Assembly: GCA_964016885.1 (NCBI GenBank)
Contig: OZ024745.1
Coordinates: forward strand, 35,526,001 to 35,590,000
Origin: Eledone cirrhosa
Lineage: Eukaryota
DNA length: 64,000 nucleotides
Direction of reading: 5' to 3'
The position numbers and the translations under genes were made by a program. This document shows, piece by piece, positions 15,004-44,631 of this stretch (positions are counted from its first letter, which is position 1; each line of letters begins with the position of its first letter). The notes under the pieces are model-generated. The model did not search any database, was not told the origin of the DNA, and was given only the letters and a program-made list of their open reading frames with translations.

Positions 15004-15193
15004 TAGGAACGAGTAGGACCCCCGACTGCTGAGCTCAAGCCGTTTCGACGGCTAATTCTGGACTTAGCCGTCGAAACGGCTTGAGCTCAGCCGTCGGGGC
15101 CCTACTCGTTCCTATTACCCACTCTACTACCCTAAGTATTGAGTACTTTGATGCGTTATGGTCCACCTGGTTCCTTACCACATTTCCTTCGTT
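15004..15193 (+). mobile_element. Fold-back mini-insert of the PLE family B 3' terminus
   Basis: 15065-15193 matches the terminus of the 44688-47589 element. 15004-15064 is an inverted copy. (TA)n on both sides. Confidence 0.88.
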
Positions 15194-15282
15194 ATATATA
15201 TATATATATGTATATATATATATGTATATATATATATATATGTATATATATATATATATGTATATACATATATATGTATATA

Positions 15283-16168
15283 CGAGGTGTGTCAGAAAAG
15301 TTCCAGCACTGATGTCACAAAAGATTGATTTCGAACCCAAACTTCACACAAAGAGTTTTCTGCTTCAAAGTAATCCCCCTGGAATCTAATGCACTTTTCC
15401 ATCCTTTTCTGCCACGCTTGCATGCACCCCTGGAAAGATTTTTCCGGGATCCTCCGCAGTTCCGTCGTCACGGCCTCTTTGATGTCGTCCACGTCTTCAA
15501 AACGGGTCTCCTCCGGGTCGTACTCGGAGATCCATGACTCATCACCGGTGATGACTGTCCCTAGCAAGTCTGGTCCGGTTTTAAGACGCTCGAGGATGTC
15601 CTGGCACACTTGCAAGCGTCGACCCTTCTGTTCATAATTCAGCAGTTTTGGCATCATGTTTGCGCAGACTTTCCGCATGTTCAAATCTTCAGTGAGAATC
15701 TTCCAGACGCTGTCCCGATTCATGCCCAGCTCATTTGCCATCAGTCGAACAGTCAGCCGACGATCGCTACGCACCATCTGCCTGACGCGCTCAACGTTGA
15801 CCTCAGTCCTGGTTGTTGGGGGCCTTCCGCTCATGGGGTCATCTTGCACCACTCAAAAACACGGGAGCGTGACATAGTCTCATCTCCATACACTTGCTGC
15901 AGCAATCCCAGTGCTTCTGAAAGAGTTTTCCCCAACCGTACCAGAAACTTCAAGTTTGTTCGTTTCTCTGTGCTCATTGCTTGACGACCTGAAACAGAGG
16001 ACATGTATGTAAAATTATGAAGAAAAAAGTTTGATCGCTGCAGAGAGCTAAGATTACAGTTACATACTCCAGGGGGATAACTTTGAAGGAGAAAACTCTT
16101 AGTGTGAAGCTTGGGTTTGAAATAAATCTTTTGTGACATCAGTCCTGGAACTTTTCTGACACACCTCG
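15283..16168 (-). mobile_element. Internally deleted mariner (Tc1/mariner) transposon with about 100-bp TIRs and TA TSD
   Basis: TA|CGAGGTGTGTCAGAAAAGTTCC...GGAACTTTTCTGACACACCTCG|TA. TIRs are at 15283-15383 and 16068-16168. Confidence 0.95.
15292..15977 (-). pseudogene. mariner transposase pseudogene (HTH domains and first catalytic D kept; second and third D deleted)
   Basis: KFLVRLGK...VYGDETMSRSRVFEW, SGRP, MPKLL (WVPHEL-like), ITGDESW, YDPE joined directly to RFEDV...QGDYFE; frameshift near 15845. Confidence 0.92.
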
Positions 16169-18495
16169 TATATGTATATATATATATATGTACATATATA
16201 ATTCGTTTACTAAGTAAAAGAATACTGGCGTTTATATGCTTAGCACTCGATCCAATTTTTCCCTACGTATATTCAGTATAGGCAGTCGTAATAATCGCCA
16301 CCAGCATCATTTCGTCAGATTATTGTATTAATCCATTAGCGAAGATTATTTGTATCAAAGGAGGAGAGGGTGAAATTACAGTTTAACAGATTTTTATTCG
16401 CATTTGCGCTTGATACGTGTAGGATCACTTTATAGGAACGACTTAAAGCTAGCGGCCGTTATATAATTTGTTTTACAATTTATAGCACGACTTCGATGCA
16501 ATCTGTTTATCATATGCTTTCGAGATTACTGATGCGTCAACTCCTAGTATAAATGTGTCGAGCTCATATGTGTACATACAAACCACTCGAAGATCCCACA
16601 TTCCAAAATAAAAAAATAAATGGAGATAAATTACACACAAACACGCAAACACATGCATATATATATGAGTATGCTGCAGTTTTCCTCATGCATTATGGCA
16701 TATGTAAAGTTATTATGTCTTGGGTGCCGCTACAATGCAAATGCAGTTGTAAATTCCAAGGCAACAAAATATGGAGATGAATGAAATAGGTGAGGTTGAG
16801 AGGAGGATGGGAAGAAAAAACAAGAATCAGGGTTAATGTTAATCTAGATATATATATATATATATTAATCCCCAACACCTTTCGGAAATAAGATTATCAA
16901 GGGATCCATAAGGAATCCCGTAGAATGTTGCTATGCTTCTATGTGATTCGTTTAATATATTTTAAGCCATAAAGAGACTTTAAGTTAAAACAGAAAACAA
17001 GCATTACGTAATATTATGAAATGTGGCAGGCTCAATTTAGGAGATAGTCAGCAGCCTGACTATTTGATATATTCCTTGTTGTTATAGTTAGATTACGAGG
17101 CATATTTTAAAATTATTTGGTTTGGATGTCCAGGTAAAATTACGCTTCGTATCTTGCTATTTTCTTGTCTGATATACATGGTCGTTTTCAAAATATGTTC
17201 TTTTGTTTTATGCTTCTACGAATTTGTAAAACCACAAGCACTGTTTTTGTCATTCAAAATAACCTAGTTTGTTTAGTTAGTGGTTTTGACAATACACATC
17301 AATAATGTAGTTTTTAGGTATTTTTTCCAAATTTTCTCCAGGCTAATCTATTTTCTCGTTTTACATCGAAGGACAGTTACATATTTTCAGACAGAATGTC
17401 ACATATTTGTATCATAAATAAATGTTGCAATAGCAAATACGAAAGGCTTTTGCTGTCAACCAACATCCAAGGTAAGGGTCAAGTGAATTTTAACCGTGCT
17501 CGTCCCGTCTCTTTACAGTTTCGAATGTGTTATTTCATTTCGAAAGACTGTACATTGTGATTTGATGGATGTTTGACTGCTATGTCTTGTAGGCCGATTA
17601 AACATGTTTGGCAGTGTGATAAAACGGCCTTCTTTATGTGTAATAAAATAAATGAAATTTCAGCTAATCACTATGTTGTAACAAGTTTTGATGTTTAATG
17701 CTGAAATATCAGATACAAATAAATCAATATAAAAGCAACAACGAAAACAATAATAATAATAACGGTTTCATTAATATAATTTCCGTGACACGTTTGAAGC
17801 ATTGATAAAATCAGCTTCATGACGAAAATGTCTCATGTCCATCACCAAAGGGCTCAAAATATTTTAAGAGCCCCTCGCAATTTTCTGTATGCTTTTGATG
17901 ATACGATTAATTACTTTGCGAAAATACACAAATCTATATCCTGAAGATGGAATGAAATAGGGTGGGCAAATGTTGAATATGCTTAATTGATTGATCACTG
18001 ATTTGTATCAGAGGACACAGACAAAAACGATGGTATATACTTAACTATATATATATATATATATGTAGAAGGTGAGTAATATTGTAGAACAATAAAACTA
18101 TGCATATATCAGATAAGTAGCACTCAACAGTTGGTAGAACTGGAGTATATATTAAACAAGAAATTAAAAGATGGTTAAAAACGTTCCATATATTTTATTA
18201 TAAATAAACATGAATAATCACAGGAGATAATTTTTACAAGTGTGTAACCACACATAGCTAGATAGGTAACTAAATATGGCGCATGTCTTCCTGGCATGAC
18301 ACCCATAATTTTGATTTAGATTAAATTCATTTGATTTATCTTAATTTTGTATATATATATATATATATATATATATATATATATATATATATTACAAGAG
18401 ATGTCAACATGAATGGACCTGTTATTTTTATCTAAATACATATTTTCCAATTCCAACCTGCCCGTCCCTTCAATCTATCTCATTTCTCATTCTTT

Positions 18496-18529
18496 CTTCT
18501 GATGAAGGACTAGCGTCCGAAACGTTAAG
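18496..18529 (+). ncRNA. Minimal type-I hammerhead ribozyme with intact core
   Basis: CTT-CTGATGA-A-GGAC(tagc)GTCC-GAAA-CG-TT-AAG; palindromic AACGTT stem III. Lies in a short insert (about 18392-18620) between TA tracts. Confidence 0.8.
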
Positions 18530-18698
18530 GCACTCTTCCTGCTATTTCAAGCGTTAACCTTATATATTCCTTCTATATACTATAACGATTATGTTGTTAT
18601 TTCTGATTATCTTTTACACACACACACGCATATATATATATATATATATATATATATATATATATATATATATATATATATATATATATATATATATA

Positions 18699-43075: not shown

Positions 43076-43680
43076 GGTGGCTGCCAATTCGTTTTCGAGC
43101 ACGGCCACTACTTTATATCCATGTAGGAGAGCCCCTACCGATGCGCTGACGAGTGTGACTTTTTAGTCCAGCCAGCGACTTGAAAACTCCGGTACAAACA
43201 CTACACTTGTGACAATCATTGACACAGTACTGGGCCCATGGTACCATGTGACGACAAGTGCAGAGAGATCTCCAGATATAAAGCAATGCCTGTGCTGTGA
43301 AGCTTTTATAGTGAGCAAAGGCATTGCACAAAGCCAGTCCCACTCTCTTAACCAAGATGATATTTACCAAAAAGAAGAACAAGTCAACATCATTGGATAC
43401 CATCAGGGTTGCAGGTGTTATATCAGAGTTTTCCTTCTCCTAGAATTCTGCCTTGACAAAGGCTAAGGGGTCATCTCTCCCGGTGATTTTGGATGGCCAT
43501 TGACTCTTAAGAGCTCCTTTGCCCTTTGACAGGTTTTGTTTTTAATCCTTCAGGATGTCCAAAGTCACCCTCCTCACCAAGAAACTTTGGTGGAGTTGCC
43601 AGTTTAGTCGCCAACGACCCGACCATGAGACAGGTTGTACTGGGATACATGTTACCAGTAGCACCAAGCGGTGACCTGAC
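43076..43680 (-). mobile_element. Apparently full-length (about 600 bp) bipartite non-autonomous RTE-derived retroposon
   Basis: Structured GC-richer 5' part and a 3' part encoding [18 protein letters not shown], with no RT. Flanked by (ATAC)n/(TA)n. Confidence 0.7.
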
Positions 43681-43766
43681 ATACATACATACATACATAC
43701 ATACATACATACATACATACATACATACATACATACATACATACATACATACATACATACATACAT
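43681..43766. repeat. (ATAC)n microsatellite
   Basis: Direct reading. Confidence 0.95.
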
Positions 43767-44023
43767 AGATGGGTATATGTGGTTTAGTGGTCAGGATGTT
43801 TGACTCACGAACGTAAGGTCATGGATTTGATTCCTGAACCGTGCCGCATATATGAAAAATAGTTTATATCATGTTCCTCCCCGCTGCAAGAAGACCAATG
43901 AGAACATCGTTTCTTATATATATATATATATATATATATGTACGTATATATATATATATATATGTATGTATATATATATATATATATATATATATATATA
44001 TATATATATATATATATATATAT

Positions 44024-44293
44024 TTCGTTTCTGAAAAATGGCGTAGGATAGAAGAAAGGAAAGGCACAGAAACGAAGAAAGAAATCCCCAGTCACTGAAG
44101 AGGTCACAGAGTGTGTGACGAAAGAACTATGACTATATATATATATAAACAACTATCTGGTTGTGGAACCAACCAACCAACCAGAAATTTATAAATTTGT
44201 AAATTTATAAATATATATTAAATTAAATTGAAGTGAAAGCAACTGGTGCGTGTGTTTCTTATTGGCAACATGACCCTCCCAAAGTATAACAAT
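44024..44293 (+). mobile_element. PLE family-A-related 3' terminus with hammerhead, between (TA)n tracts
   Basis: Ends ATGACCCTCCAAAGTATAACAAT like 1666-1690. Confidence 0.8.
44090..44134 (+). ncRNA. Minimal type-I hammerhead ribozyme with intact core
   Basis: AGTCA-CTGAAGA-G-GTCACA(gagtg)TGTGAC-GAAA-GAAC-TA-TGACT: 5-bp stem I and 6-bp stem II. Confidence 0.82.
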
Positions 44294-44438
44294 ATATATA
44301 TATATATATATATATATATATATATATATATATATATATATATATATATATATATATATATATATATATATATGTATGTATATATGTACGTATATATATA
44401 TATATATATATATATATATATATATATATATATATATA

Positions 44439-44631
44439 TAGGAAAAAGTATGACCCCGACGGCAGAGCTCAAGCCGTTTCGACAGCTAATTCTGGACAGA
44501 AATAGCCGTCGAAACGGCTTGAGCTCTGCCGTCGGAGTCATACTTTTTCCTATTTTCCACTCTACTACCCTAAGTATTGAGTACTCTGGTGCGTTATGGT
44601 CCATCTGGTTCCTTACCACAATTCCTTTGTT
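44439..44631 (+). mobile_element. Fold-back mini-insert of the PLE family B terminus
   Basis: Arms at about 44439-44489 and 44502-44553 share private variants; (TA)n flanks. Confidence 0.88.

Follow-up and report, generated by a model that had tools for sequence, protein, structure and literature searches.

We analyzed a window of 64,000 nucleotides from Eledone cirrhosa (assembly GCA_964016885.1, contig OZ024745.1, positions 35,526,001 to 35,590,000 of the forward strand), which contains five copies of the terminus of a Penelope-like element (PLE) with a hammerhead ribozyme motif. Four of these copies are mini inserts, in which two arms of the terminus are joined head to head between (TA)n flanks, and the fifth is a long copy. 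Positions in the element are numbered on its sense strand, with 0 as the last T of the terminal TCGTTAT. An outer end at 0 is designated L, and an outer end at -80, the last T of TTCCTAT, is designated S. On this scale, cleavage by the hammerhead is predicted between -100 and -99, and the TTCCTA end is 19 nt past this site, as given in a preliminary description of this DNA. Ends derived from BLAST have an error of up to a few bases.

All four mini inserts of that description are present, and each joins an arm ending at 0 to an inverted arm ending at -80. The first (15003-15195; CCTAC subfamily) consists of an S arm at 15003-15064, antisense on the plus strand (-80 to -140), and an L arm at 15064-15195 (-131 to 0), with one T common to both arms; these inner ends were read from the sequence, and BLAST gave -134. 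The second (25183-25343) has its S arm at 25183-25246 (-80 to -143) and its L arm at 25247-25343 (-96 to 0). Its arms overlap by only 17 nt, so neither was copied from the other, and the term inverted self-copy does not apply to this insert, in which the inverted arm has 47 nt (-143 to -97) with no counterpart in the other arm. The third, of the young CTTAC subfamily (25437-25629), has an L arm at 25437-25572 (0 to -135), two extra nucleotides, and an S arm at 25575-25629 (-134 to -80). The fourth, of the older CATAC subfamily (44438-44633), has an S arm at 44438-44497 (-80 to -139) and an L arm at 44497-44633 (-136 to 0); one C is common to both arms, which disagree at one diagnostic site (-131).

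The long copy (44686-47589, minus strand) is 5'-truncated and frameshifted, with its L end at 44686. Its inverted arm (47399-47589) ends at -151, so the fixed outer end at -80 holds for the four minis and not for this copy. A reverse transcriptase (RT) fragment with a YRDDGL motif is located at 46693-47484, and a zinc finger-like linker with a GIY-YIG endonuclease fragment at 45996-46511 (both minus; GIY-YIG E=0.02, under the curated cut-off). The type I hammerhead motif occupies 44781-44875 (minus) and comprises stem I (ACCCC/GGGGT), the core at 44863-44870 (C3 with A8), stem II, GAAA, and stem III with a palindromic loop; the predicted cut is between 44786 and 44785 (minus). The candidate priming site S, a TAT ending at -80, is at 44766-44768 (minus), and the 80 nt onward to 44686 form the tail. 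Most arms stop within hammerhead loop II, at 44820-44830 (minus; -134 to -144), and we refer to this place as the wall. It contains two initiator (Inr)-like words with A at -144 and -140, and a TATA-like word, a putative promoter element, lies near it at about 44849-44856 (minus). Within 25183-25629 and 44438-47589, copies sit back to back in one (TA)n tract, often tail to tail, so that each insert provides targets for the next.

Elsewhere in the genome, the element is found as tandem arrays of a 3,531-bp unit with a 784-aa open frame. Arrays of at least three tandem 3.5-kb units within one insert occur at loci L181-L183, L194-L195 and L186-L187; recent activity of the family is suggested by the L181-L183 units, which are approximately 100% identical and have open frames of 784 aa. 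The single frame carries DKTG, YRDDGL and a YIG motif, i.e., RT with a C-terminal GIY-YIG domain. The whole frame gave no Pfam match, some members of its Atlas neighbours at 0.96-0.99 carry RVT_1, GIY-YIG or HTH_animal, and no relative was found among solved structures. Partial tandems give rise to a pseudo-long terminal repeat (pLTR), the inverted copy is at the 5' end, and the tail is at one end only. The inserts are termini of an endonuclease-containing (EN+) PLE with a hammerhead, with the fixed outer end joined through TA/TAT microhomology, as had been proposed. The linker before the endonuclease has four cysteines (CxC..C..C) and suggests, by this motif, the Neptune or Nematis clade, with a spacing that is not exactly the published CX2-5CxxC pattern of these clades; the protein may be Neptune-like. 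EN+ PLEs are characterized by a CCHH motif in which two cysteines lie between GIY and YIG, according to the passages available from PMC8557442. Here, as read in the 784-aa frame, that interval has one cysteine only, and a CxxC and histidines follow further on.

The motif shows the predicted type I hammerhead core (CUGANGA, GAAA and NUH around three helices), and its stems are nearly invariant across 24 aligned copies. In 85 of 89 distinct copies, the core has the form YUGA-N-AA, in which N7 is free (G, T, A, C); U3-A8, a natural active covariant of the hammerhead according to the passages available from PMC3088659, is present in 53/89, and C3/A8 in 32/89. The C3/A8 mismatch is typical of the CCTAC subfamily (29/35); the long copy in the window has it too, whereas most of the other subfamilies have U3-A8. 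The three-helix fold with GUC at the junction had z=0.17, i.e., no stability signal, and the fold of -140 to +60 was not unusually stable either (z=-0.75). An Rfam scan of the window returned only sub-threshold hairpin matches and no hammerhead family among the matches listed (150 of 224).

The assembly (3.0 Gb) was searched for exact patterns. We found 35,732 matches to a core 24-mer, 30,143 to tails and 24,342 to S ends joined to TA, and 372 tail-to-open reading frame (ORF) junctions; all four controls gave 0, so the joining of S to TA is far above chance, and the family holds at least 24,000 inserts. Loci were fetched around the 100 listed tail matches and most of the 100 listed S matches, which lie in the first 23 Mb of contig C1; together with the window, they formed the unselected sample. 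After exclusion of clusters at a locus edge, weak clusters and clusters short of -150, it contained 190 distinct complete clusters, chosen without regard to the inner junction, of which 142 were two-armed and 48 one-armed or other.

The outer ends of two-armed inserts are strictly paired. Among the 142 of the unselected sample, 125 were L+S (six with an eroded S end), one was L+L, one was S+S, and 15 had an outer end elsewhere; with the selected loci added, L+S accounted for 204 of 242. Both sites are internal to the 3,531-bp unit and both end in TAT. The fixed outer junction corresponds to the PLE tail, here 80 nt. Since the tail and an inverted copy have already been published (available passages of PMC3846280, PMC8557442 and PMC2377424), this junction is not new, contrary to what had been thought. 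S ends are also present on one-armed copies and on multi-unit arrays, with S-ended arms up to several units long; because of this, and because start sites bound the tail in an Anolis element, S appears to act as a priming site. Target-site duplication length could be read in 3 of 168 flanks, all three in repeats.

Inner ends, which had been described as differing among copies, do differ, and they are piled at two places rather than simply variable. Both arms come to an end at -128 to -146 in 75 of the 125 L+S inserts. A genome-wide count of head-to-head junctions gave 14,196 at about -134 to -144, compared with 38 in an interval of the same size near -165, approximately 30 nt upstream of the wall (reversed-pattern control 24). 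The second place is the hammerhead site, with 451 junctions genome-wide and 3 in the control. Among the first 50 of these 451, examined by hand, 38 had arms that both ended at -99 or -98 and were separated by 0-9 non-genomic letters, most often a single extra A/T; nine were microhomology-type joins reaching about -102 and three were other. Six fetched examples of this class were ordinary L+S inserts. Inserts that end at the predicted cut are likely a DNA record of hammerhead cleavage in living cells, and cDNA ends piled at -99 may bear, indirectly, on self-cleavage after GUC.

The inner stops behave as template ends, because some arms leave a stop, land further downstream and continue copying from there. 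In template jumps read by eye, 22 left from -137 to -144, six from -99 to -104 and one from -114. Short direct repeats were observed at L203:1376-2033 (-143 to +113), L329:4819-5384 (about -104 to +103) and L234:1470-1627 (-140 to -94); we read them as repeated end-to-end template jumps on short RNAs, and they resemble newborn retrozyme or satellite units. Internal inversions of about -100/-125 to +91/+107 lie inside longer copies at L227:1176-1647 and L230:1415-1607. The wall is likely an RNA start, at -140 to -144; the TATA- and Inr-like words there have promoter-like spacing, which we take, by comparison with consensus motifs, to mark a putative promoter only. Two other readings were considered and rejected. 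Splicing to the AG at -139 left no recurring upstream exon at junctions, and a non-homologous jump that leaves the wall for a full-length RNA with its end at the cut had just eight genome matches (seven inserts), with acceptors at -91 to -100 and never with long sequence after them. Template ends explain the turning point better than the ribozyme fold, which the preliminary description had regarded as its trigger.

Both arms come from one source. Arm divergence was 3.6% within inserts (212 of 5,863 sites; 125 inserts, all loci) versus 9.7% between inserts, and arm haplotypes were identical in 78 of 93 inserts versus 16.6 expected, which agrees with the earlier claim of a common source. The substitutions taken then as private are subfamily alleles, with the three commonest haplotypes on 24, 21 and 21 of 93 L arms. 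Rare alleles were on both arms 16 times and on one arm 186 times, so sequence alone shows the same subfamily and not the same molecule. The end class (cut, wall or long) is a stronger test of a common template. In the unselected sample, long arms were paired with long arms seven times versus 2+1 mixed pairs (p=4e-9), and in all 204 L+S inserts 38 times versus 4+1. A single arm at the cut was seen in 4/125, versus about 21% expected by rough arithmetic if the arms used independent RNAs. The two arms thus share both subfamily and end class.

The features read directly in the DNA are two fixed outer ends, their strict pairing, two inner stops, the coupling of the arms, and microhomology or filler at the joints. 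We consider it probable that they arise by overlapping twin priming, in which one RNA serves both nicked strands of a (TA)n tract as a template, primed at 0 and at -80, and the cDNAs are joined head to head. The element endonuclease would nick both strands of the tract; reverse transcription of the same RNA would then start from each nicked strand, at a fixed internal site particular to that strand. Since both sites would be near the RNA 5' end, both cDNAs would run off it, either at -140 to -144, where transcription likely starts, or at -99, where the hammerhead would cut. An RNA starting at -140 to -144 would have only half of the hammerhead and could not cut there in cis. The two cDNA 3' ends would then be joined through 0-4 nt of microhomology or through a short filler, either non-genomic or templated. 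Both cDNAs span the same stretch, so one would have to displace the other; to our knowledge, the PLE RT lacks RNase H. The minis, in tens of thousands, are dead-end copies of a Penelope-type element.

Several observations weigh against this mechanism or its steps. The unselected sample covers the first 23 Mb of one chromosome and the window; 48 of its 190 clusters are one-armed or otherwise unclassified, and 15 two-armed clusters have an outer end elsewhere. Arm haplotypes are non-identical in 15 of 93 inserts, and the excess of rare alleles on one arm is as given above. Of the 38 cut-class junctions, 8 come from the CCTAC subfamily, even though it is mostly C3/A8. The wall spans 10-12 nt and not a single base. 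An extra G before -140 (23 of 30 arms) might be a copy of a cap, but a genomic G variant (2 of 116 long copies) and letters of the partner arm confound this reading. Finally, the commonest wall junction could also come from a local fold-back with a 6-nt loop.

The preliminary description had proposed cDNA snap-back, in which a single cDNA with its primer at 0 turns back on itself in the hammerhead region, is extended along its own sequence as far as -80 and attaches to the target via TA microhomology. An S arm within 5 nt of the L arm, or shorter, in 87 of 125 inserts agrees with this idea, templated filler and 4-nt microhomologies at some inner junctions would suit local self-priming, and self-priming has been put forward for palindromic junctions in the available passages of PMC3846280. 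However, snap-back predicts an inverted arm that is always nested. In 38 of the 125 inserts, the S arm outreached the L arm on the 5' side by 6 nt or more and thus includes sequence absent from it; L extended further in 26 and the arms ended within 5 nt in 61, i.e., the asymmetry is in both directions, and 12 inserts had no overlap at all. In cut-class junctions, both arms are complete and lie 0-2 nt apart, which leaves no loop or primer, and S ends are present where there is no second arm or on multi-unit arrays. As a general rule snap-back is refuted, and as an account of these inserts it is very unlikely; a short local fold-back may act in the final joining step only. Amplification of one or a few ancestral hairpins in the manner of miniature inverted-repeat transposable elements (MITEs) would fit the uniform size of about 190-200 bp and the few junctions that recur two or three times. 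Yet 54 different inner junctions among 62 minis, unequal ends and reciprocal junctions are not those of one fixed unit bounded by terminal inverted repeats and amplified whole; this diversity rules out a single amplified hairpin and upholds the earlier view that the copies are independent. The arms group by insert and subfamily and not by side, and this explanation is extremely unlikely. Still less credible is a fold-back artefact of long-read assembly, presumably a known class of hairpin, against which stand the 3.6% arm divergence, the unequal fixed ends and the filler. Contigs from sequencing runs X1 and X4 show the same wall, with steps in summed depth (not copy numbers) of 22-fold and 34-fold, and TA-joined loose ends at -80 and 0, and X1 lists two opposite-strand joints; X1 may be the assembly's own sample.

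Dual priming, in which two RNAs in one particle, usually from one source locus, each prime one strand, would produce overlapping arms without strand displacement and could account for the 15 of 93 haplotype mismatches and for one mixed junction among 50. The sharing of end class by both arms argues against it, strict L+S pairing is unexpected from two equivalent RNAs, and we regard it as improbable. A different question is whether the wall is a stall of RT in hammerhead loop II, caused by a fold, a bound protein or a branch point, on RNA that continues upstream. This reading is compatible with twin priming and rivals only the step of transcription start. A broad wall just past stem II and the lack of a clear cap signature in the confounded extra G speak for it. 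Against it, jumps leave repeatedly from the same wall base, as they would where a template ends (L203, L234), filler made of T runs points to addition at run-off, the spacing of the TATA- and Inr-like words resembles what we assume to be promoter spacing, and long arms pass the wall (none of 57 rows stops). We judge a stall unlikely.

For long and tandem inserts, overlapping twin priming would use the same two sites on a template without a wall end. In 61 rows in which arms cross the tail-ORF junction after >1 kb (some rows repeat one junction), four stop before -96, 57 pass -150 and none lies between; no arm longer than one unit stops at the wall, and L338, with an internal deletion, stops at -100. 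Stops in the 29 short-crossing rows fall at -125 to -143 in 11 and at -99 to -104 in eight. Because a one-unit RNA from one promoter would pile long arms at the wall, the long templates appear to lack a wall end. The uncleaved template of the preliminary description suits arms crossing -100 and not the separate class ending exactly at the cut. By these sequence patterns, circular RNA has nearly an even chance of being the long template, a read-through multimer is rather unlikely, and seamless strand transfer is unlikely; a hammerhead-made circle is, speculatively, the simplest reading for long copies. We tentatively suggest, as a possibility short of an even chance, that strong-stop hairpins come from capped or ribozyme-cut linear RNAs, and full-length and tandem copies from rolling-circle reverse transcription on a hammerhead-cut, circularised unit-length RNA. 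If true, this would supply the missing mechanism of pLTR regeneration and a job for the PLE hammerhead.

Other repeats lie in the window. A second PLE-like family is present at 1-1688, 2400-2950, 19382-19452, 25377-25399 and 44148-44292, with an RT frame at 1-525, a cysteine-rich frame at 602-1198 and a stub of about 22 nt between the second and third minis; its 3' end likewise joins (TA)n, and an inverted arm was not evident in the stretches inspected. Broken frames of long interspersed nuclear element type with endonuclease- and RT-like motifs occupy 27652-30595 (minus). Beside the first mini, 15259-16174 is presumably a Mariner-like transposase fragment with inverted ends, and 33575-33958 is what we take to be a C-terminal fragment resembling an R4/Dong-type non-long terminal repeat protein.

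The family offers a genome-scale record of paired internal priming and ribozyme-cut templates, and the rule of one fixed and one variable junction, formulated in the preliminary description, is half known. The natural products of the reaction, tens of thousands in number and with coordinates exact to the base, identify two priming sites, one per strand, and two inferred template ends; in one class of them, the ends coincide with the predicted cut of a hammerhead of the U3-A8 variant. Such hairpins may also be mistaken for MITEs or miRNA precursors in annotation. Canonical EN+ PLEs share RT with C-terminal GIY-YIG, a hammerhead in the pLTR, partial tandems, head-to-head inversion, a tail at one end only and TA-rich targets (PMC8557442, PMC3846280, PMC2377424; available passages). 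Their tail is 30-40 bp, compared with 80 nt here, and those passages contain no distribution like the one counted here, with 125 L+S pairs versus 2 and inner ends at two discrete places, one of them the ribozyme cut. The origin of PLE tails, inversions and tandems and the role of the hammerhead are stated as open in the available passages of PMC8557442, PMC2377424 and PMC11167929. A full-text literature search found no twin priming applied to PLEs and no genomic ends at a hammerhead cut; older papers on Penelope structure may hold related models.

Retrozymes are likewise hammerhead-linked retroelements for which circular RNA templates have been proposed, and animal retrozymes are described as PLE derivatives (PMC4918200, 10.64898/2026.07.22.740005). 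Unlike them, the minis are head to head with half the ribozyme missing; for this autonomous element, a circular template is something we only infer. Twin priming and dual priming have been described for L1 (available passages of PMC2837659), where, as here, the second target strand primes internally on the RNA and yields an inverted arm. In L1 the second site is variable and the arms are non-overlapping, with an internal deletion, whereas in this family both sites are fixed and close to the inferred RNA 5' end, and overlap of the arms is usual (12 of 125 pairs have none); the process resembles twin priming, but not in its L1 form. A biochemical parallel is in vitro target-primed reverse transcription by PAc, the Anolis Poseidon element (PMC11167929, available passages). 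PAc, a predicted dimer, cuts and extends both strands of an AT-rich target, and two internal RT start sites, shown in vitro, bound the tail downstream of the hammerhead cut, as is probable in E. cirrhosa. No strand difference in start site was seen for PAc, whereas different sites are used on the two strands of one insert here. Cleavage was unnecessary for PAc in vitro and that study found no RNA reads with an end at the cut, whereas in E. cirrhosa cleaved RNA appears to be used as a template.

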